Origin: an uncultured Candidatus Saccharibacteria bacterium
GTDB taxonomy: Bacteria; Patescibacteriota; Minisyncoccia; Phycocordibacterales; UBA9973
Assembly: GCA_964544225.1 (NCBI GenBank)
Contig: CAZIZK010000002.1
Span: 2,557-66,556 of the forward strand
Direction: 5' to 3'
DNA: 64,000 nt
The position numbers and the translations under genes are program-made. The notes under the pieces were generated by a model. That model made no database searches. It was not told the DNA's origin and saw only the letters and a list, made by a program, of their open reading frames with translations. Shown here one piece after another: positions 279-55,468 of this stretch; position 1 is the stretch's first letter, and each line of letters begins with the position of its first letter.

Positions 279-1760
279 ATGTCATTTGCGAAGCCGAACA
301 AGATTCAAATAATCAAATACGCTCCACCACCACCAGACTTGCCAGTGCTAGGTACTGTCGACGCGTCCGAGGTATCGTTCATTGGCCGTACGAACTATGT
401 GGCCGCATTGGAGGAGAAGAAGTTCGTATTCGGTATCAAGCGTGTGGACCGCAGGCGCCACCTATATATTATCGGTAAGTCTGGCGTGGGTAAAAGTAAA
501 CTTCAGGAATTGATGGTCCGCCAGGATATTGCTTATGGTCAGGGTGTATGTATTATAGACCCGCACGGTGAATTCATCGACGATATATTAGGCTTCATAC
601 CCGAAGAGCGTATAGAGGATGTGTGTATTATTGACCCTGGTGATATTGATTTTCCAGCATCTTTCAACCCACTAGCCAATGTGGACCCAACATTTAAACA
701 CCAACTAACTCAAGGTTTGATCGAGGTGCTACGTAAACAATTCGGTGCGAACTGGACTCCACGTCTGGAACACGTGTTCCGCTTTACCACACTTGCGCTA
801 TTAGACTACCCATATGCCACAATGCGTGGAATGATCAGCATGCTTACTGACCGTAACTATCGTCAGAAGGTGGTGGAATATATCGAGGACGACATGGTAA
901 AGAGATTCTGGGCTATCGAATTCGCGGACTGGTCCGAGAAGTTCGATACAGATGCGATCATCCCTTTGGTTAACAAACTTGGCCAATTCCTATCTGACCC
1001 GATGCTACGCAATATCTTCGGTCAAAAGGAGAACAAGATCGATATCGAAGAGTTGATGAATAATCAAAAGATACTATTAATCAACCTTTCAAAAGGTAAG
1101 ATCGGTGAGGAGAATTCCTCATTCTTCGGAGCGATGTTCCTGACAAAGATAAAGCAGGCTGGTATGTCACGTGCAAAGATGGATCCAAAGGATCGCCACG
1201 ACTTCTACCTATATGTGGACGAGTTCCAGAATATTGTGACCGATACTTTCGAGAACATTCTTTCCGAGGCTCGTAAATACGGACTGAACCTTACAGTCGC
1301 ACACCAATACGTGGGCCAATTGTTACCAAAGGTTCAGCAAGCAGTGCTAGGTAACGTGGGCTCGATAATAACATTCCGTGTGGGTGGTGACGATGCAGTG
1401 AAATTGAAGCCCGAGTTCGCCCCAATATTCGACGTGAAAGATATGATCAATCTAGGAGTGGGCGAGTTCTATGTGAAGATGACTATCGATGGTGAATCAT
1501 ATGACCCATTCTCGGCAGAAACATTGCGAGTGTTACCACCAACACACCCATCGTACCGTGATAGGGTTATTGAAGCTTCACGTCGTAAATACGCTATTAC
1601 CGCCGGCGATGCCCAGAGGTTGATCGCGGAAGAAGAGTCTACTATTGTACGTTCTGCCCAGGAAAAGGCCGCTATTACAGGTGGTAAAGGCTATGGCCAT
1701 GATGACGATGTGGAAGACAAGCCAAAGGTAGAGGCCAAAGCAAGTGAACCTTTGATATAA
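279..1760 (+). CDS. VirD4/TraD-like type IV secretion coupling-protein-family ATPase (AAA_10/TraD DNA-binding type)
   Basis: Walker A GKSGVGKS, CIIDPHGE motif, Walker B LYVDEFQN. Paralog of 4363..6777. TATAAT at 268-273 lies directly before the ATG, so the mRNA is probably leaderless. Confidence 0.8.
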   Translation: MSFAKPNKIQIIKYAPPPPDLPVLGTVDASEVSFIGRTNYVAALEEKKFVFGIKRVDRRRHLYIIGKSGVGKSKLQELMVRQDIAYGQGVCIIDPHGEFIDDILGFIPEERIEDVCIIDPGDIDFPASFNPLANVDPTFKHQLTQGLIEVLRKQFGANWTPRLEHVFRFTTLALLDYPYATMRGMISMLTDRNYRQKVVEYIEDDMVKRFWAIEFADWSEKFDTDAIIPLVNKLGQFLSDPMLRNIFGQKENKIDIEELMNNQKILLINLSKGKIGEENSSFFGAMFLTKIKQAGMSRAKMDPKDRHDFYLYVDEFQNIVTDTFENILSEARKYGLNLTVAHQYVGQLLPKVQQAVLGNVGSIITFRVGGDDAVKLKPEFAPIFDVKDMINLGVGEFYVKMTIDGESYDPFSAETLRVLPPTHPSYRDRVIEASRRKYAITAGDAQRLIAEEESTIVRSAQEKAAITGGKGYGHDDDVEDKPKVEAKASEPLI

Positions 1761-1773
1761 ATAATATAAAAAT

Positions 1774-1800
1774 AAAAAAAGTGGACAAACATTTGTCCAC
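1774..1800 (-). terminator. Rho-independent terminator for sigA (hairpin GTGGACA..TGTCCAC followed by a U-run on the minus strand)
   Basis: Perfect 7-9 bp stem at 1781-1800 with an A7 run at 1774-1780 (U-run for the minus-strand transcript). Lies between convergent genes. Confidence 0.5.
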
Positions 1801-1826
1801 TCTCAGAAATAATCATAAACAGGATT

Positions 1827-2702
1827 TTATTTTAAATATGATTTGAGCACTTTATACTGATTACCTTTCCTTAGTTTTTTCAAAGCTTTTTCTTTGATTT
1901 GGCGGACACGTTCACTTGTTAAACCAACAGTATTACTAATATCTCCCAGATTCATAGGAGCTTTGTCTTCTAATCCGTAATAAAGTTTTAAAATATCATT
2001 TTCTAACACACTAAGCTGTGACAAGGAAATTCTAATATGTTTCTTTAAAGATTCATATATTAATTCATTGTCAGGGGTTACTTCAGGATTCTTCTCTGAA
2101 ACAAAAAACATATCAAGCAATGTGTCTTCACCTTCTTCACCTGACGAAGATGCATCTAGGCTAATATGTCTTTTGAAATTTAAAAAAGCATCATTCACAA
2201 CAGATATTTCTGCACCCAATGATTCGGCTATTTCCTCATAAGTAGGTTCTCTTTCAAGAATCTGCTCTAATTCGGAATGCTTTTTCAACACGCGGGTCAT
2301 AACCCCTATATTGTTCAAGGGTAACCTAACCATGCGCACTTTTTCGGCTAATGCTTGTAAAATACTCTGACGTATCCACCAAACAGCATATGAAATAAAT
2401 TTAAAACCCCGGGTTTCGTCGAACCTATCGGCTGCTTTAATTAATCCAAGATTACCCTCATTTATAAGTTCCCCTAGGGAGAATCCTTGGTTTTGATACT
2501 GTTTTGCAACAGATACTACAAAACGCAGATTCGCAAGCACTAATTTATCCAAAGCAGCTTTGTCGCCTTCATGAATCTTTTTTGCCAGCTTTATCTCTTC
2601 CTCTGGCGTGATCATGGGGTATTTGTTTATTTCAACCAAGTATTTGTTGACAGATTCTTCTTCACGGCTTGTGAAGTGTTTAAATATCTTTAGTTCTCTC
2701 AT
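1827..2702 (-). CDS. sigA: RNA polymerase primary-like sigma-70 factor
   Basis: Region 2 motif ISYAVWWIRQSILQALAEKVRMVRLP, regions 3 and 4 present. 291 aa. Confidence 0.85.
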   Translation of the reverse strand: MRELKIFKHFTSREEESVNKYLVEINKYPMITPEEEIKLAKKIHEGDKAALDKLVLANLRFVVSVAKQYQNQGFSLGELINEGNLGLIKAADRFDETRGFKFISYAVWWIRQSILQALAEKVRMVRLPLNNIGVMTRVLKKHSELEQILEREPTYEEIAESLGAEISVVNDAFLNFKRHISLDASSSGEEGEDTLLDMFFVSEKNPEVTPDNELIYESLKKHIRISLSQLSVLENDILKLYYGLEDKAPMNLGDISNTVGLTSERVRQIKEKALKKLRKGNQYKVLKSYLK

Positions 2703-2823
2703 ATTTATCTTTTTCTTTTAAATTACCATTATAATCTTTATATGTAAAGATGTTATTTGAAAGTAAAATAAAAAAATGGTCACCAATAAAGGCAACCAAT
2801 TTAATGAAATTTCTTAATTTTTT

Positions 2824-3423
2824 TTAATCACCGAGCCACTCGGTGAAGATTCCAGAGTTTTTTGTTTTATTTCTTTTAAATAATTCTTTCCAAAGAAAGT
2901 ATTGGATTATGAGTCCATACACTATCAATACTTCAGAAAGTAGAGCATCTTCTATTTTCCATGATTTTGCATTTATTAAATAGTAAATGTTCATAGTCAT
3001 AAATCCTAAGTTTGGTAATATGTACCATGGCTCTGGGTTATCCTGTGTTTCTTTTAAAAGGGGAATACCAGCAATAAATTGCGCAGCACAGAACCCAACA
3101 AGGCTCAGAGTAGGATTGTTTAACCCTAACCAAATAAATATACAGATAGGGACAGCTATCACAATAATAGTTTCAGTCTTACCCCATTTATTATCTGCTT
3201 TTAATAAGATAAGCAAAATGGTGATAATAATTCCACCAATTGTAAAGAGTTTCAGTGCCTCAGCACTGTCACCTTGCTGACTGTCTGTTGCAAAATATTG
3301 GAATACATCTAATACGGTCCACAGTACCCAAGTCAAGATGTTCTGGCCCACAGCCCTTTCTTTTATGGCTAATATAGCCAAAGATCCGTATGCACATACG
3401 GCAATCCAAATTATGAAGTTCAT
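2824..3423 (-). CDS. Multi-pass membrane protein, unknown function
   Basis: 199 aa and strongly hydrophobic with several predicted TM segments. Occupies the gap between annotated genes. Confidence 0.5.
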   Translation of the reverse strand: MNFIIWIAVCAYGSLAILAIKERAVGQNILTWVLWTVLDVFQYFATDSQQGDSAEALKLFTIGGIIITILLILLKADNKWGKTETIIVIAVPICIFIWLGLNNPTLSLVGFCAAQFIAGIPLLKETQDNPEPWYILPNLGFMTMNIYYLINAKSWKIEDALLSEVLIVYGLIIQYFLWKELFKRNKTKNSGIFTEWLGD

Positions 3424-3736
3424 AGCTTATGTTTTTCTTTTATTTTTACAGTATTTTTGGGTATATGTAAAGGGGAGAGGGTTGTATTGCTTTTTTTACT
3501 ATATATTGTATAATATACAAAATTAACAATAATTATGATGAACATTCAAGAAAGCATTGCCTGGGCAATGCAAAACACACGTTTCCTGTTGACATTAATA
3601 GTAATTTCTTTTCTTCTAGCAATGCATTTTGCTACAAAACAAAAAAAAGATAAATTACCATGATCAACACATTTTTTATAAAAAGGCGTCTATAGTTTTA
3701 TTACTTGGATGCCTTTTTTTATGCTAAAATGTCTGC

Positions 3737-4312
3737 ATGGAAGAAACGATCAATATATTTGCCGAGTATAAAAATGTCAGTATTATCTTACACGTATTTT
3801 CAGTAATAGTTGGTATGGGGGCAGCTGTCGTATCTGACATACTTTTCAATATTTATATAAAAGATAAAAAGATAGATATATCTGAGAACAAGACTCTGAA
3901 TATACTATCTAGTATTATCTGGGTGAGTCTGGGCTTCATATTACTATCTGGGATATTCATATTCTTTTCTGATACTGTAAAATACATGAACTCTCCAAAG
4001 TTCCTATTGAAGATGGTAATAGTAGGTTTTGTTATTATCAATGGCTACGCTTTCCAGAGGATCGTGCACCCTGCTATACGCAAGATCAATTTTAATGACA
4101 CGAACTCGAACCACAAATATGTCAAAGTACGCAAGCTTGCCTTTATGTTTGGCGCTATATCTGTCACATCATGGATGTCTGCATTTGTATTAGGTAGTAT
4201 ACCTCGCATACCTGTATCTTTCTTTATGGGATTGGCTTTTTATCTAGTTCTGTGTTTATGTGCTATTGTGGCTAGTCAGTTTGTAGAGTATAGAATCACG
4301 CATTCTAAATAG
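3737..4312 (+). CDS. Membrane protein, unknown function
   Basis: 191 aa with four or more hydrophobic segments. Confidence 0.55.
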   Translation: MEETINIFAEYKNVSIILHVFSVIVGMGAAVVSDILFNIYIKDKKIDISENKTLNILSSIIWVSLGFILLSGIFIFFSDTVKYMNSPKFLLKMVIVGFVIINGYAFQRIVHPAIRKINFNDTNSNHKYVKVRKLAFMFGAISVTSWMSAFVLGSIPRIPVSFFMGLAFYLVLCLCAIVASQFVEYRITHSK

Positions 4313-49296: not shown

Positions 49297-49368
49297 GGCC
49301 CTATCGTCTAACGGTTAGGACACATCCTTCTCAAGGATGGAATCAGAGTTCGATTCTCTGTAGGGTCA
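49297..49368 (+). tRNA. tRNA-Glu (anticodon CTC); the encoded 3' CCA is displaced by the inserted element
   Basis: Hand-folded. Acceptor GGCCCTA/TAGGGTC, D-arm TCGTCTAACGGTTAGGAC, anticodon stem CATCC/GGATG with loop TTCTCAA, T-arm CAGAG-TTCGATT-CTCTG, discriminator A. Confidence 0.85.
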
Positions 49369-50894
49369 CAAACTGAAACTGCATTCGCGGAAAGTCCCAA
49401 ATGCGGGCGCGCCGAAGGCGCGCTGTATGGAGAGAGCAGGAATTCTGCATTGCGGGCGCGGGCGAATTCGGTGGGCGGGCAAAATGAGACAGAGACGGAC
49501 TTGTCCCGCAATTGCGAGTTCGTTCCAATTTTTTTGAAATAGTCACGAATTTCAAAAAAATTATCCGTGGATTGCAATTGCGTGGCTTTTTTCATATCCA
49601 AAATCCATTCTCGCAAGGGTTCGACCCAATTCTTTTTCTCTGCTCGGGCGGAGTCCATTTTTTGAGAGAGAGACACTTTTTGTTTCAAAAGCTCGTTTTT
49701 CTTCAAAATATAGTTTTCTTTCGGTATATCGCCGTCTAAATATAAACTGACCAACTCATCGAGCTTTTGTTCTGTCTCTCGCTCATTTTCCTTAATCCGC
49801 CCGAGCATACTTCCCGACGAGGATTTTTCACTTTTGTCCCATTCGTCAACTTTAGATAACATATAATCTGTCCACTCGTCGGGAAGTGCGATTTGTTGAA
49901 GCCGTTCTTTTAATTGCAAGACGACTACATCTTCTCGCAAATATTTTTGGTCACAATTTCCTTTCTTTTTTGTACAACGATAATAGCGATACCGAACGCC
50001 CATTTTTCCCGTCGTCCATTGAGCAGTTATCATACTGTCGCATTCTCCGCAACGAAAAAGACCTGTGAAAGGAAAATTGTGACTTTTCTTTGATTTGCGA
50101 GGATGAGATCGTTCTTGCAATCTTTTCTGTACGGCTTCGAATAAATCGTGGGAAAGAATTGGCGCAAAGCTTCCGGGGAAATATTCGTTGTAATGTTTCG
50201 TTAATCCTAAATATGCTTTGTTGGATAGAATGCGAGATACGGAAGCTTTGCTAAGTGGCGTTCCATTTTTCTGACATACTCCATGATCCGCCAAAAACTT
50301 TCCCATAGATTCAAAACCGTGGTTACCTTTTACATATTCTTCAAAAGCGCGGACGATAATTTTAGATTTTACAATATCAGGTTCAATATTTCTCGTTTTC
50401 GGATTATTGAAATACCCAAACGGCGCTTTTGTTAGCCACTCACCACGGCGAAGTTTTTGGCGGATTCCACGCTCAACATTTTGCTTTAAATTGTCAGAAT
50501 AATATTTAGATTGTCCGAACGCCACTTGTAACATGAATAGCCCTTGCGGGGTTGGTTCAAACCAAAATGTCGGAAAACGCAAAGAAATGATTTTGGTCGT
50601 GTCTACGGCGTAGATGATGCGCCCTCCATCAACGCTATTTCTCGCTAGTCGGTCAGGATGCCAAGCCAGAATACCAGCACCATTCATATTTTCAATGCGG
50701 GACATCATCTCGCCAAATTTTTCACGACCAGGTTTCTTTGCGCTTTTCGACTCTGTAAATTCTCCAAGAATTTGCAGATTTTCTTTACGCGCGAATTCTC
50801 GTAACTCAAAAAGTTGTGCCTCGATAGACATGATTTGCTTGTCATCATCCTCGGTACTTTTTCGCGCGTATAGAAAATATTTTGGTTTGATCAT
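49308..50894 (-). CDS. Large serine recombinase (resolvase domain + recombinase domain + zinc ribbon)
   Basis: N-terminal catalytic region YARKSTEDD with the Ser nucleophile, recombinase domain, C-x2-C...C ribbon (CGECDS..YYRC), coiled-coil. The last roughly 60 codons run through the GC-rich repeat and the tRNA, so the true C-terminus is uncertain. Confidence 0.8.
   Translation of the reverse strand: MIKPKYFLYARKSTEDDDKQIMSIEAQLFELREFARKENLQILGEFTESKSAKKPGREKFGEMMSRIENMNGAGILAWHPDRLARNSVDGGRIIYAVDTTKIISLRFPTFWFEPTPQGLFMLQVAFGQSKYYSDNLKQNVERGIRQKLRRGEWLTKAPFGYFNNPKTRNIEPDIVKSKIIVRAFEEYVKGNHGFESMGKFLADHGVCQKNGTPLSKASVSRILSNKAYLGLTKHYNEYFPGSFAPILSHDLFEAVQKRLQERSHPRKSKKSHNFPFTGLFRCGECDSMITAQWTTGKMGVRYRYYRCTKKKGNCDQKYLREDVVVLQLKERLQQIALPDEWTDYMLSKVDEWDKSEKSSSGSMLGRIKENERETEQKLDELVSLYLDGDIPKENYILKKNELLKQKVSLSQKMDSARAEKKNWVEPLREWILDMKKATQLQSTDNFFEIRDYFKKIGTNSQLRDKSVSVSFCPPTEFARARNAEFLLSPYSAPSARPHLGLSANAVSVCDPTENRTLIPSLRRMCPNR
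49366..49480. repeat. IRa, a 115-bp GC-rich repeat and the P' arm of the integrated att site
   Basis: Exact reverse complement of 50953..51067. Confidence 0.85.
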
Positions 50895-50952
50895 ATATGT
50901 TTTTGGATTATGAAAAAAGAATAGTCCGTTCTTGTCTCATTTCTTGCTTTCC

Positions 50953-51067
50953 GCCCGCCCACCGAATTCGCCCGCGCCCGCAATGCAGAATTCCTGCTCT
51001 CTCCATACAGCGCGCCTTCGGCGCGCCCGCATTTGGGACTTTCCGCGAATGCAGTTTCAGTTTGTGA
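50953..51067. repeat. IRa', an inverted copy of IRa and the first part of the intact internal 400-bp block
   Basis: Exact reverse complement of 49366..49480. Contiguous with IRb. Confidence 0.85.
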
Positions 51068-51351
51068 ACTAATTATATCATTTGCGCGAACTTTTTTCCA
51101 AACAAATGACTAATCGCACATCCGTGCGCTGAAGCGCCTCTGTGCGAAGCACAGAGCTTTCCCAAAGGGAAAGTACGGATATGCGAATACAATGCGGACT
51201 TGGTTTTGCGAAAGCAATTTTCTGGGGAAAGGATTTCGCAAAACCTCGGCTACTAATTTTTTTTGAAATTCGGCGGGACTTTGGATTTGGATTCCGCGCG
51301 CAGGAGGGGTCTGGGGAGGAATGCGCGCGGAGCTTTTTTGGGCGGGGGCTA
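51064..51351. repeat. IRb, a 288-bp GC-rich multi-hairpin repeat
   Basis: Exact reverse complement of 54687..54983 over every segment I compared. Contains hairpins GCGC-TGAA-GCGC, CTCTGTGC-GAA-GCACAGAG, CTTTCCC-AAA-GGGAAAG, and a 12-bp stem GGTTTTGCGAAA/TTTCGCAAAACC. Confidence 0.85.
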
Positions 51352-51586
51352 TGGATAAATTTAAACCAAAATGCTAAACTTATTTGACAATTAAATATGT
51401 TGCCTAAACCAAAAGCTTCGCTTTTGGCATGGCGAAAAACCCGATGAAAGATAAAGAACTCCTAGTCAGAGTTCGCCTTTCATCGGGTCGTGCGGGGAAA
51501 CCCGCATGGGTGGTCGCAAGACTGCCGAGCTGGCTAGGAGCTTTTTGTAAAACTAGCGAACCATTATTAGTAAAAATTATAAATTT

Positions 51587-51820
51587 ATGAAAAAGAAAAA
51601 TAAAGGTAAAAATGTACTAGGAATTATTTGTTTATTGTTTGCAATAGGATCTTTGACCCAGCCAAATTTTGGTTTTGCTCCGCTTGATAGTGCATTTTCA
51701 TTTGGTCAAGATATTGTTCCAACATTAGCGTTTGTTGGTAGTTTTTGGTTTATATATGACATGATTAAAAATCGTGGAAATAAATCGCAAACAGAAACTC
51801 CAAAAGTAGAAAATAATTAA
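51587..51820 (+). CDS. Small two-TM membrane protein (77 aa), cargo gene 1
   Basis: Two hydrophobic helices. First gene after IRb. Stop is 1 nt before the next start. Confidence 0.45.
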   Translation: MKKKNKGKNVLGIICLLFAIGSLTQPNFGFAPLDSAFSFGQDIVPTLAFVGSFWFIYDMIKNRGNKSQTETPKVENN

Positions 51821-51821
51821 T

Positions 51822-52622
51822 ATGGAGAACGAAAATAAAAAAGAAGAAGTTGGTAGAAATGTTCCCAAAAGACTAAAAGAGCTTTTCATCATGATTGCTC
51901 CTTTTGTTTTGGTGCTTCTTGTCGGATCGTTTTATGCTTCTCACAAACAGAGTCAACAATTAACGAGCGAATTTAAAACTGCTTTGTCTGGTCAAAGTGG
52001 GAGCGGTCAATATTCTGAAGTATTAAATCAAGTTTTTAGTTATTACAAAAGCCAAAGTGCAATTGAATTTCCTTACTCTCATGAGCTAGATAACTCAGAT
52101 ATGTTGGAAATGAAAAGTTTTGAATCGAAAGATTCTATCAATCAAATCAGTGGAATCCTTAAAAATACTCTCACAGAACTTGATTCTTATGACTCAAAAA
52201 TGAATGAAATAATTCAAGGAGCTAGATCAATTATTCAGAATAGTAATTTATCTCAATCGGAAAAAGACGAAGCTCTTGCTGGTTTCGACAAGTCATTTGA
52301 AGATCAAACATCACAGGACCTGGGCAGTAAAAGAATTGTTGCCATGAGAAATCTCTATGAAAAAGTTTTAACACTTTATGAATTTATGTTGGCAAATTTT
52401 GATGACTATCAAATAAAGACCAATGATTCAGGAAATCAGCAAGTGTACTTCTATACTGATAGTAATATAACCAGATACAATCAAATTTCTGCTGATGTTC
52501 AAAAACTTTCTATAGAATTTCAGAAAGCTAATGATGAATTTATTGCATACAAAAATAAAAATTTCAAAAGTAGTGGTTTAGATATAAACGCGACTGATGT
52601 TCAAAGTTATTTTAATCAATAA
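51822..52622 (+). CDS. Membrane-anchored protein of unknown function (266 aa), cargo gene 2
   Basis: N-terminal TM (IMIAPFVLVLLVGSFYA) followed by a polar Ser/Gln/Asn-rich domain. Confidence 0.55.
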   Translation: MENENKKEEVGRNVPKRLKELFIMIAPFVLVLLVGSFYASHKQSQQLTSEFKTALSGQSGSGQYSEVLNQVFSYYKSQSAIEFPYSHELDNSDMLEMKSFESKDSINQISGILKNTLTELDSYDSKMNEIIQGARSIIQNSNLSQSEKDEALAGFDKSFEDQTSQDLGSKRIVAMRNLYEKVLTLYEFMLANFDDYQIKTNDSGNQQVYFYTDSNITRYNQISADVQKLSIEFQKANDEFIAYKNKNFKSSGLDINATDVQSYFNQ

Positions 52623-52690
52623 ACCTTTACTTTTTAGGTTAAAGTGGTAGAATAGACTTGTTGCGAAGTGTATAGCTTAGCTATACACTT

Positions 52691-54250
52691 TTGCTTTTTA
52701 TGGCTAGATACAATGTCTATAAAATTAAAGATGGGCAAGTTAATGAACTACAAACTCATTTAACCAAAGACCGTAAATATAAATTGGCGGATAGTTTTTC
52801 ATCGCATGGTTATCAAGTTTATACATATTTTGCTGGACCCGATTCAACCGATATGTGGTGGCTTGAACAATACGGACAACATTTTCCAGAACATACGGAC
52901 AAACATAATCAGATATATTCAGGTGCAGTTGTGGCAAATAATACAAGTAAAAAATCTGGCTACATAATCCCACTTGGAAAAACACATTTTTATATTCAAA
53001 ATTTTATTGAAATCAATTTTGGTTTGGAATTAGCGGAAAGGATTGCAGATGAAAAACAGACCAAAATGAAAAGTCTTAAAAATTTTGGCGGGAAAACCAG
53101 TAAGTCCCTTACAAGTTACATTTCAGGATCAAATCTATTATTCTCTAGTGGTGAATCTGCCGAATATTTAAAGCTGAAAGCTCAAAATAAAGAAGCATGG
53201 GGTGATTCATTTGTTCATTTTGGAAGTAGTGTTCAGTTTAATAGTCTTGAAATTGAGCCAGATGATTTGGGTGTTTTGCTCTCAAATATTGATTCTGCGG
53301 TGAAAGGAAAGAAAATATTACACCTTCCGTTAATGAAAGAAATAAAAGAGCCAGCATTGCTCGTACAGTTATATTCAAATCTTGCTGAAAAAATCTTAAA
53401 TGCGGATGACAGTATTGGTATTCTTGATTACGAAATATATGGAGTAGACTTTGTATTTTCTCAACAGACTCATATCAAACTTAAATGTGAGGGTGTTTAT
53501 TCCGACCAATTACCACAGCTTACATTAGAAAATATTATTACGTTCGTAAATGACAACAGTATAGACTTGAAAGATTGCTTGCAGAAAATAAAAGTCCAGT
53601 TTTTAGTGGACAGCGAATCAAAGTATACTGTTCCGCTATTACAACTTATTGAATATTACGGCGATGACAAGAGCTTTTTATATAAGGGTAAGTGGTTTTA
53701 TTTCAATGAAAGCTTTATTGAAAGTTTACATAATGCTCTGACTAAAGTCGAGGTTAGTGAATTTGGCAAAGCTTTTTCAGAAAGCGAATTTGAGGCTTGG
53801 CAAAAAACAAATAAAAATAAAGTAAATTACCGCGAGAGGTTTGTTATTGAGAAAATACACGAAGAATCAAAATTTGAAATTTTAGATCGAGATTTAGACT
53901 ATCTTGGTGTTGGAGATAAAAAATATCAACTTGAAATTGGTGATCTTTATGACCAAAAAAACAAAAGTTTATATGTCGTTAAAATTGGTAGTCCTAGTGA
54001 TTTTGGCTATGCTTTTGATCAGACATTTACCCTGCTTAGTAATGTAAAAGGTCAAAAGTATATTAGTACTGGCGGCAAAGAATATCCTATTGAAACAGTG
54101 AACGTTTTGATTATTTTTCGCACGAATAGAAAATTAAAGGATGCAACTGATACTAAGTCTTTAATTTTTGAAATAAAACTAAATGAATTACAAAAAATAG
54201 CTTTTGAAAAAAATATTAAATTGAATTTAACTTTTACAACTATACTTTAA
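52691..54250 (+). CDS. 519-aa soluble protein of unknown function, cargo gene 3 (possible sporadically distributed defence-island-type protein)
   Basis: Long uninterrupted ORF with AT-rich codon usage typical of the host. No motif that I can name with confidence. Confidence 0.55.
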   Translation: MLFMARYNVYKIKDGQVNELQTHLTKDRKYKLADSFSSHGYQVYTYFAGPDSTDMWWLEQYGQHFPEHTDKHNQIYSGAVVANNTSKKSGYIIPLGKTHFYIQNFIEINFGLELAERIADEKQTKMKSLKNFGGKTSKSLTSYISGSNLLFSSGESAEYLKLKAQNKEAWGDSFVHFGSSVQFNSLEIEPDDLGVLLSNIDSAVKGKKILHLPLMKEIKEPALLVQLYSNLAEKILNADDSIGILDYEIYGVDFVFSQQTHIKLKCEGVYSDQLPQLTLENIITFVNDNSIDLKDCLQKIKVQFLVDSESKYTVPLLQLIEYYGDDKSFLYKGKWFYFNESFIESLHNALTKVEVSEFGKAFSESEFEAWQKTNKNKVNYRERFVIEKIHEESKFEILDRDLDYLGVGDKKYQLEIGDLYDQKNKSLYVVKIGSPSDFGYAFDQTFTLLSNVKGQKYISTGGKEYPIETVNVLIIFRTNRKLKDATDTKSLIFEIKLNELQKIAFEKNIKLNLTFTTIL

Positions 54251-54686
54251 TTTCAAGGGAGCGTTCCCCATGCGCGCACGGGTGGGCAAAGTGTCCGCGT
54301 GTACTCACGCGGACAAAGGGGCAAGCATGTATTCCGCCTCGGGCATTTCCGCTATGAGCGTCCATGGCTAAAGGATGAGCGCCGAAGTAATATAACTCAC
54401 AGAAGTTTAGTAGCGAAAGCGACACCACGAACATAAATATGCAAAACGTAGAGTGGGGATGGCGAGGGCGGAACTTCTCGCGAGTACTCTCTGCGAGAAG
54501 TAGCCCGACCCGGGGAGAGGAAACTTCCTCTCCCCAAGAAGCGCGGGCTCCTGCCCGCACGTAGGCACCTAGGCGCGAGTAGCCATAGCGGAAATGCCCG
54601 AGGCGGATGCCGAGGGTGCATCCCCTTTAGACTTGGACAACCACATAGCAAAAGAAATGACCGAGAAAATTTTAATCCTGTTGTTT
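54251..54686. other. GC-rich, hairpin-dense non-coding segment (candidate structured RNA or recombination accessory region)
   Basis: Perfect hairpins CCGCGTG-TACT-CACGCGG and GAGAGGAA-AC-TTCCTCTC, a 23-bp long-range inverted repeat (54333-54355 with 54586-54608), and an imperfect CTTCTCGCGAG..CTCTGCGAGAAG palindrome. Its GC content far exceeds the surrounding genes. Confidence 0.3.
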
Positions 54687-54983
54687 CTGAATTTTTAGCC
54701 CCCGCCCAAAAAAGCTCCGCGCGCATTCCTCCCCAGACCCCTCCTGCGCGCGGAATCCAAATCCAAAGTCCCGCCGAATTTCAAAAAAAATTAGTAGCCG
54801 AGGTTTTGCGAAATCCTTTCCCCAGAAAATTGCTTTCGCAAAACCAAGTCCGCATTGTATTCGCATATCCGTACTTTCCCTTTGGGAAAGCTCTGTGCTT
54901 CGCACAGAGGCGCTTCAGCGCACGGATGTGCGATTAGTCATTTGTTTGGAAAAAAGTTCGCGCAAATGATATAATTAGTTCAC
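54687..54983. repeat. IRb', an inverted copy of IRb at the right end of the element
   Basis: Reverse complement of 51064..51351. Ends with TCAC at 54980-54983. Confidence 0.85.
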
Positions 54984-54985
54984 CA

Positions 54986-55468
54986 ATGCAAATTACTAAT
55001 TTTGAAAATCTTGTAGATAAAGATAAGAATCAGGTTTTTGTCTTTTATTGTCCAGCTTACATACCTGTTAATTTTGCTATACACCCTTGGTTCTTGGTAA
55101 ATAGAAAAGGGGTACTTTCCAGATATGAAATTTTTAACATTAAAAATTTTCAAGCAGATAATGAGGGTTTTATAAATATTGGCTATTGGTACAAAAATGG
55201 GTTGCCTACATATAGTGGCATACAGGTTTTTCCATATAGTAAAAAGTATCATTGGAATGCAAAGTTACTAGGTGTTGTTGATGGTGATGATACAAAAGTG
55301 CTGGAAATGATCGAGTTAATTGAGAATTCGGATAAGCAATATCCCCATATACAAACTTATCGTTTACTTGGGCCCAATAGCAATACTTATGTAAATTGGA
55401 TACTAAGTAAATTCCCAGAATTTAAGATCAAACTCCCACTCGGTGCAATAGGTAAGAATTATAAATAA
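54986..55468 (+). CDS. Hypothetical 160-aa protein
   Basis: ATG lies 3 nt past the element boundary. No recognisable motif. Confidence 0.5.
   Translation: MQITNFENLVDKDKNQVFVFYCPAYIPVNFAIHPWFLVNRKGVLSRYEIFNIKNFQADNEGFINIGYWYKNGLPTYSGIQVFPYSKKYHWNAKLLGVVDGDDTKVLEMIELIENSDKQYPHIQTYRLLGPNSNTYVNWILSKFPEFKIKLPLGAIGKNYK

Follow-up and report, generated by a model that had tools for sequence, protein, structure and literature searches.

Cargo mosaic of an integrative element at tRNA-Glu: a membrane-protein pair and a DUF6119 protein that may target DNA

We analyzed positions 51587–54250 of a 64,000-nucleotide (nt) stretch of DNA from an uncultured Candidatus Saccharibacteria bacterium (the window: the whole stretch studied). 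As read from its junctions, this interval lies in the arc of variable cargo of an integrative element 5.6 kb long (49366–54986), which its recombinase inserted at the 3′ end of a tRNA-Glu gene (Table 1). The interval codes for three proteins of 77, 266, and 516 amino acids (aa), which an earlier note on this DNA had taken for one module and a candidate undescribed system. We find instead two unrelated cargo units: a pair of membrane proteins with a probable role at the cell envelope, and a DUF6119 protein that would target DNA as a defense or restriction-accessory factor. Taken as a whole, we regard this reading as an even call. The closest protein relatives come from Saccharibacteria and Patescibacteria assemblies, a group of which the mobile elements and the defense repertoire are poorly known.

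The cargo genes do not form one module

With tblastn, homologues of the 77-aa and 266-aa proteins were found together only in five loci (L012–L016), with identities of 66% and 70%, respectively, in L012–L015 and of 45% and 41% in L016. None of these loci contains DUF6119: the pair is followed there by a DUF4760 gene or by other small genes. Conversely, the pair is absent from the approximately 30 loci that do contain DUF6119 (L001–L011, L017–L033, L129, and L130). A metagenome scan by recombinase alignment returned at least 568 relatives of the element, and the 80 loci that were kept for comparison (L049–L128) lack all three genes.

The border between the two units can be placed by comparison with L005. 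Nucleotide homology to this locus (87.6%) starts at 52626, just past the 266-aa gene and 74 nt upstream of the DUF6119 ATG, and the homologous block contains a promoter-like site as well as a hairpin with a T-run at 52665–52691. The DUF6119 protein of L005 is about 94–95% identical to that of the window, and an unrelated methylase gene lies upstream of it. Judged by this alignment, DUF6119 is a single-gene cassette with its own upstream region. Since the pair and DUF6119 occur apart, and since the homology to L005 starts after the 266-aa gene, the cargo as we read it is a mosaic of LOOT RNA plus membrane pair and a separate DUF6119 cassette, and not one system.

A single functional system, with the membrane pair, for instance, as sensor or anchor and the large soluble protein as effector, would agree with the common strand, the tight packing, and the single cargo arc between perfect repeats. 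The three genes do not co-occur elsewhere, however, and the 69–78 nt between the 266-aa gene and the DUF6119 gene hold a terminator-like hairpin and the start of a separate homology block. The neighborhoods largely refute such a system, which we now consider highly improbable. Recognizing the three-gene cargo as a mosaic saves work on a false module.

Family membership and neighborhoods of the large protein

By profile match, the large protein adds a member to DUF6119, a known but uncharacterized family (Pfam PF19614; E 1.8e-21; 76.9 bits, cut-off 27). Residues 8–445 align with profile positions 2–440 of 524, and 30 of 34 homologues have a precomputed PF19614 hit. The earlier statement that none of the three proteins has an assignable motif therefore fails for this one. 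NCBIfam gave no hit to the window protein at E ≤ 1; several homologues (P0002, P0012, P0021, and others) are tagged by JGI as TIGR04141, a family named "sporadically distributed protein", and the look of this kind attributed to the protein beforehand was well judged. The window protein shares the single architecture of about 500–550 aa of the DUF6119/TIGR04141 family, to which we add, by inference, the embedding in restriction–modification (R-M) operons and the two-part fold described below.

In an exhaustive profile search of 1.84 billion clusters at 50% identity, only 873 were matched, and almost all of these measure 490–560 aa. At species level the hits are scattered over Saccharibacteria, Patescibacteria, Deferribacteres, Chryseobacterium, Thermobacillus, Zixibacteria, and Actinomycetota. 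The family is nearly missing from phage records (3 of 50,697) and plasmid records (2 of 72,556), and IMG/VR yielded none (0).

Distant relatives of the window protein are embedded in R-M operons. In four loci (L004, L022, L027, and L029) DUF6119 stands between Mod (an N6_N4 methyltransferase) and Res (a ResIII helicase) with overlapping stop and start codons. The order is Mod-Res-DUF6119 in L021, and in L020 the gene follows a Type I HsdR. DUF6119 is not a described R-M subunit, and Mod-DUF6119-Res may be an undescribed R-M variant. In comparison with Type III and Type I operons, where these relatives lie between Mod and Res or after HsdR, the window copy has neither Mod nor Res. The Mod-DUF6119-Res operon, which has a methyltransferase of about 770–860 aa and a helicase of about 890–980 aa, recurs in unrelated phyla.

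In L001, L005, L006, L008, L010, and L129, the genes adjoining DUF6119 code for methylases, for SacI, MvaI/BcnI, or Eco57I-type enzymes, or for GmrSD or DUF4238. A large serine recombinase is found within about 8 kb of DUF6119 in nine independent loci (L001/2, L003, L006/7, L008, L017, L018, L019, L029, and L129). In the sister elements of the window element, 88 open reading frames (ORFs) from the cargo of 26 elements include six N6_N4 methylases, six C-protein-type helix–turn–helix (HTH) proteins, four ResIII, two MvaI/BcnI, and one each of ThaI, LlaMI, TdeIII, and C5 methylase. The element family thus carries mainly R-M systems. This observation is consistent with a defense-type role for the DUF6119 cassette in the same slot and, together with the R-M neighborhoods of DUF6119 itself, it supports the defense-island context that the earlier note had suspected.

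Predicted structure and possible roles

Structure prediction, which had also been suggested for the large protein, produced a model with an RdgC-like N-terminal part and matches that are only weak. The full-length AlphaFold2 model, built from 29 sequences, has a predicted local distance difference test score (pLDDT) of 86.9. In a Foldseek search against the PDB, it weakly matched a CdiA-CT DNase toxin (4g6u), RdgC (2owl/2owy), XPF, and CD38. The RdgC match extends over about 320 columns with a probability of 0.92–0.97 and concerns the N-terminal ~300 residues. The comparison with viral models ranked phage RdgC-like proteins first (probability 0.96–1.0), and some of these carry the annotation "exonuclease". 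The likeness to E. coli RdgC and to phage RdgC-like proteins is thus one of fold (probability 0.92–1.0): the window protein differs from RdgC by the absence of sequence similarity, by a template modeling (TM) score of only about 0.3, and by a C-terminal α/β domain that RdgC does not have. The RdgC profile of Pfam gave no hit, also on DUF6119 fragments at E ≤ 10, which gave nothing informative, and a sequence-profile search of the PDB with the DUF6119 protein returned nothing.

For the C-terminal domain, modeled alone with a pLDDT of 87.9, CdiA-CT is the top match (4zqu, E 5.7e-4), with XPF and CD38 next; every TM score is below 0.42. Five invariant residues (E382, E415, D418, K431, and Q444) lie on the predicted α-β-β-β-α core of the domain. 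The predicted order of secondary-structure elements fits a PD-(D/E)xK core, with TM scores of 0.36–0.41 to CdiA-CT and XPF, although CD38 scores similarly. Set against the catalytic D…(D/E)xK motif, the protein has an invariant D418 and an invariant K431, and a valine two positions ahead of K431; the conserved E382, E415, D443, and Q444 could substitute for the missing acid. The PD-(D/E)xK nucleases CdiA-CT (4g6u, 4zqu) and XPF (2bgw) are the best fold matches for a core with conserved E, D, K, and Q, and the window protein differs from them in its weak match scores, in its incomplete (D/E)xK triad, and in having no evident immunity-gene partner.

Our hypothesis from these models is that DUF6119 is a fusion of two parts, an RdgC-like module for DNA binding and a domain resembling restriction endonucleases. 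The N-terminal module would hold DNA, and the C-terminal domain would cut it by way of E382, E415, D418, K431, and Q444. The protein would act alone in the window element, and with Mod and Res where it is embedded in their operons. Gene content, family membership, neighborhoods, att junctions, and the separate occurrence of the two units are direct results; we infer DNA binding, nuclease activity, and a defense role from the predicted folds and the neighborhoods. The protein is rare and sporadic across bacterial phyla. Its placement with Mod and Res and its RdgC-like and nuclease-like architecture provide a concrete proposal that experiments in culturable hosts, Chryseobacterium and Bacillus among them, can address.

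Several points weigh against the two-unit reading given at the outset. The putative nuclease domain reads V-V-K where the canonical (D/E)xK acid would stand two residues ahead of K431, the fold matches are weak (TM scores of 0.2–0.4), and CD38-type NADases match the C-terminal domain nearly as well. The window copy has no methyltransferase partner, and several relatives (in the Chryseobacterium loci and L130) stand alone amid housekeeping genes and have no defense neighbors. PADLOC, NCBIfam, and PHROGs contain no match for the DUF6119 protein; PADLOC-DB v2 in particular gave zero hits at E ≤ 1 for all three proteins and both neighbors. The literature searched holds no biochemical or genetic data on any DUF6119 protein. 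Finally, the membrane pair is without any informative homology, and its proposed role is drawn from topology only.

The RdgC-like fold of the N-terminal part and the large serine recombinases near DUF6119 in nine loci would also fit an accessory protein of element maintenance or recombination, one that modulates RecA or the serine recombinase in the manner of RdgC and affects directionality or stability. We consider this unlikely, because DUF6119 is absent from all 80 closest relatives of the window recombinase, because in L004, L022, and L027 it lies inside R-M operons with no recombinase in the fetched flanks, and because no recombinase accompanies the singletons of the Chryseobacterium loci and L130. 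Where recombinases are neighbors, they come from several diverged groups (30–70% identity).

DUF6119 could furthermore be an anti-restriction or anti-defense protein that aids the entry of mobile elements into new hosts. DNA-binding or DNA-mimicking proteins are common among anti-restriction agents, and DUF6119 does occur on mobile islands beside R-M genes. Yet the overlapping codons between Mod and Res in four operons argue for joint action and not for opposition, the near absence from phages and plasmids is unfavorable, and a protein of about 515 aa with a conserved set of putative catalytic residues is unlike the typical small anti-defense protein; such a function is very unlikely. Slightly less probable still is a CD38-like C-terminal domain that cleaves NAD+ or nucleotides and causes abortive infection via metabolite depletion: many CD38 ADP-ribosyl cyclase/NADase structures are among the C-terminal matches (probability up to 0.97), but their TM scores of 0.2–0.39 over about 100 residues are typical of a generic α/β sandwich, the best E-values belong to CdiA-CT DNase toxins and XPF, and the RdgC-like N-terminal part and the R-M operon context point to DNA.

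Attachment sites and repeats

Both junctions of the element can be read in the sequence. At the 3′ end of tRNA-Glu, attL is GGGTCAC followed by AAACTGAAAC, and at the far end, attR is TTAGTTCAC followed by CAATG, which restores the CCA of the tRNA. An internal attP is intact and in inverted orientation: its reverse complement is TTAGTTCAC followed by AAACTGAAAC, and the reverse complement of the inner junction, formed by the inner arm of inverted repeat A (IR-A) and the start of IR-B, reads …ATAATTAGTTCACAAACTGAAAC…. The core CAC is common to all three sites. The left half of attL joined to the right half of attR gives GGGTCACCAATG, which is the acceptor end of the tRNA with its CCA followed by the start codon of DUF3750. 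All 5.6 kb were therefore inserted at the 3′ end of the tRNA, and the earlier description of the genes as cargo of a serine-recombinase element at tRNA-Glu is borne out by attL, attR, and the restored CCA.

The recombinase contains the Pfam domains Resolvase, Recombinase, and Zn_ribbon_recom and matches the integrase family PHROG 95 with E 1.8e-78. By this domain set and by an attL/attR core in common with the target, the element is classed as an integrative element of the large-serine-recombinase type. The recombinase ORF crosses the 115-nt IR-A arm and runs into the tRNA-Glu gene in antisense (49308–49480), so that its last ~60 codons consist of att-arm and tRNA sequence. The upstream IR-A arm places the reverse complement of this 115-nt part in the predicted 5′ leader of the recombinase. 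A promoter scan found an outward-facing promoter-like site (TTGGAA-18-TATAAT with an upstream TG) at the core-proximal end of both IR-B arms. The site in the inner arm (51101 to 51072, minus strand) points at the recombinase gene, and that in the outer arm (54946–54975, plus strand) at the host DUF3750 gene.

We can reject the possibility that the repeats are an assembly artifact. The Logan contig L034, from an independent assembly, spans the unique cargo and breaks off exactly 30 nt into either IR-B arm; therefore the repeat is real in the reads. About 60 independent metagenome contigs show the same layout.

Related elements

The layout of the family is, in this order, tRNA, attL, recombinase, intact inverted attP, variable cargo, and attR. 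This logic of attL, inverted attP, and attR fits all 15 of the related elements that were inspected. At least 12 different tRNAs are targeted, namely Glu in the closest relatives and Arg, Pro, Ser, Ala, Tyr, Val, Asp, Gly, Leu, Trp, or Gln in others. In most loci with enough flank, an inverted repeat of 75–160 nt surrounds the recombinase gene, and the tRNA, antisense to the recombinase, adjoins the outer IR-A arm. More than 20 loci have a second repeat, of which the inner arm adjoins the first repeat and the outer arm lies 0.6–8 kb away. Both arcs are bounded by near-perfect inverted repeats of 75–330 nt, the arms being 90–100% identical within an element and diverged between elements. In 15 elements, the final bases of the tRNA are found again at the end of the P arm, which also contains, about 25 nt from the core, the T-loop-like motif GTTCG(A/C)GC.

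The recombinase domain set, the site-specific insertion, the short common core, and the presence of attL and attR are shared with phiC31/Bxb1 prophages, SCCmec Ccr, and XisF elements. In contrast to these, the family described here also keeps an intact inverted attP between recombinase and cargo, and therefore both arcs are edged by near-perfect inverted repeats. The yeast 2-micron plasmid, with its two inverted FRT-bearing repeats, has a formal likeness to this layout. In the literature searched, we found no description of such an arrangement.

In L008, a recombinase that is 70% identical to that of the window lies between P-type arms at 1694–1904 and 3363–3586, without a tRNA. This arrangement is what one would expect of an element that is excised or free and has two inverted attP sites. 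The recombinase points to the tRNA in all loci except L069 (2478–2714), where the tRNA lies upstream of the recombinase and the recombinase arc is, as the sole case, inverted. Frequent flipping of arcs is unsupported by these orientations and by the structured block described below, which is always at the attR end.

The membrane pair

The 77-aa protein has one strong hydrophobic segment (residues 10–28) and a weaker second one, and the 266-aa protein has one strong N-terminal hydrophobic segment at about residues 20–40. The anchor predicted earlier for the larger protein is thus found again, while only the first of two transmembrane segments predicted for the smaller one is strong. Homologues of the 266-aa protein (n = 9) are 38–100% identical, and in the loci fetched the small protein is always encoded upstream. 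Neither protein matches Pfam, NCBIfam, PADLOC, or PHROGs, which agrees with the earlier statement on motifs as far as these two are concerned, and the 266-aa protein has no PDB match by sequence-profile search.

From its topology, the pair probably has a role at the cell envelope, and our guess is that it blocks incoming DNA or phage. In the window, LOOT RNA is followed by the pair, which we read as translationally coupled, and the two genes travel together in other tRNA-adjacent islands. The superinfection exclusion proteins of the T4 Imm/Sp type resemble the pair in that a small two-helix membrane protein and an anchored protein with an external domain are encoded on a mobile element; this comparison is an analogy of topology only and serves as a lead.

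In L013–L015 (about 1690–3800) the pair is part of an island of about 2 kb without recombinase directly past tRNA-Leu. Besides a 77/268-aa pair and the DUF4760 gene, this island contains the remnant of an XRE-type HTH pseudogene and, at its end, one IR-B-like P arm whose last bases, ...CAGCACCA, repeat the tRNA end GGGCACCA. The island looks like a decayed relative of the element. L012 has another left flank and a second, partial copy of the P arm in direct orientation. A single IR-B-homologous copy closes the recombinase-less island in L012–L015.

LOOT RNA and a second structured block

The LOOT RNA of the window (Rfam RF03000) scores 88.9 bits against a gathering score of 46.4 and covers the model in full length (positions 1–121). 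LOOT was also found in L001/L002 and in L003, 1.2–2.3 kb from DUF6119, and in no other locus searched, including the 80 sister elements. We therefore count it as cargo and reject the idea that it is part of the element backbone. Each of the three copies lies 60–73 nt upstream of an ORF on the same strand, and the functions of these ORFs are unrelated; in the window, the copy is on a mobile element and precedes the membrane pair. The loop ACUCCNNGUC (51458–51467) can pair with GGCNNGGAGY (51532–51541), immediately 3′ of the part that the Rfam model covers. Compensatory changes are present in all three copies, and this covariation of loop and 3′ tail points to a pseudoknot. L001 and L003 each have a second copy of the 5′ strand of a LOOT stem right in front of the start codon that lies downstream, a hint of cis-regulation. 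A pattern scan of viral contigs for LOOT found nothing, and nothing on the biology of LOOT was retrievable from the literature searched.

The block at 54251–54695 folds far better than shuffled sequences (z −8.2 and −8.4 on the two strands) and has no Rfam match at E ≤ 1. Homologues stand at the attR end of the cargo arc, whatever the cargo, in L051 (4921–5361), L086 (681–1093), and L102 (451–943), and were also found in L058 (268–675) and in L008 (8538–8831, 3′ of the cargo genes at the contig end). We can therefore reject a tie between the block and DUF6119, as sister elements with other cargo carry it in the same place, and its position makes it a component of the backbone of the tRNA-Glu elements. 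Aligned with one another, six copies yield 76 consensus pairs, of which 17 have compensatory changes, and among these is a long-range helix of 22–24 bp. The Alifold energies for the two strands are −115 and −106 kcal/mol, and the G-U counts are equal. The block is a candidate for a new structured RNA or DNA element. A scan of viral contigs with TGCGCGCACGGGTGGG returned only chance matches in high-GC contigs.

With hundreds of relatives, the layout of double repeats and internal attP, the R-M cargo, and an unannotated structured element, the context is richer than three genes. A more far-reaching account would have DUF6119 as an immunity protein made of an RdgC-like clamp and a nuclease, acting alone or as third subunit of a Type III-like R-M system; the element as a representative of an undescribed class, probably of the candidate phyla radiation (CPR), with two inverted attP sites and a 2-micron-like excised form; and the ~440-nt block of the tRNA-Glu members as an undescribed RNA. 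That all of this should hold jointly is possible but doubtful.

Coordinates and gene calls

Table 1. Features of the integrative element and its borders (window positions)
Feature	Position	Strand	Remarks
tRNA-Glu(CUC), integration target	49297–49369	+	ARAGORN and Rfam
Large serine recombinase (integrase)	49308–50894	−	
IR-A outer arm (P′ arm of att site)	49366–49480		115 nt; 100% complementary to 50953–51067
IR-A inner arm	50953–51067		joined to the IR-B start, forms the intact inverted attP
IR-B inner arm (P arm)	51061–51351		291 nt; 290/291 complementary to 54696–54986
Cargo arc	51352–54695		
LOOT RNA (Rfam RF03000)	51401–51526	+	60 nt upstream of the 77-aa gene
77-aa small membrane protein gene	51587–51820	+	first gene of the conserved pair
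266-aa protein gene, N-terminal membrane anchor	51822–52622	+	second gene of the pair; 1 nt past the first
Upstream region of the DUF6119 cassette	52626–52699	+	promoter-like site 52626–52653; hairpin and T-run 52665–52691
Large ORF from TTG	52691–54250	+	519 aa
DUF6119 gene, preferred start ATG	52700–54250	+	516 aa
Structured ~440-nt block	54251–54695	not assigned	no Rfam match
IR-B outer arm (P arm)	54696–54986		ends in attR; abuts the ATG of the host DUF3750 gene
Host DUF3750 gene	from 54986 onwards		ATG touches attR

The ORF coordinates agree with the earlier placement of the three genes on the plus strand, the first two of them 1 nt apart. The GC-rich flanks described at the same time are also real, as the independent contig L034 corresponds to 51322–54725 of the window. 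The left flank is made up of an IR-B arm and LOOT RNA, and the right flank of the ~440-nt structured element and the other IR-B arm. Since the DUF6119 homologues begin with MAKYN... and the gene is called at 516 aa in an independent Logan assembly made from the same sample, the start of the large gene is most likely the ATG at 52700 and not the TTG at 52691. The ratios of nonsynonymous to synonymous substitution rates relative to homologues (Nei–Gojobori) are about 0.18 for the 77-aa gene, 0.09 for the 266-aa gene, and 0.03 for DUF6119; the three ORFs are real coding genes under purifying selection.

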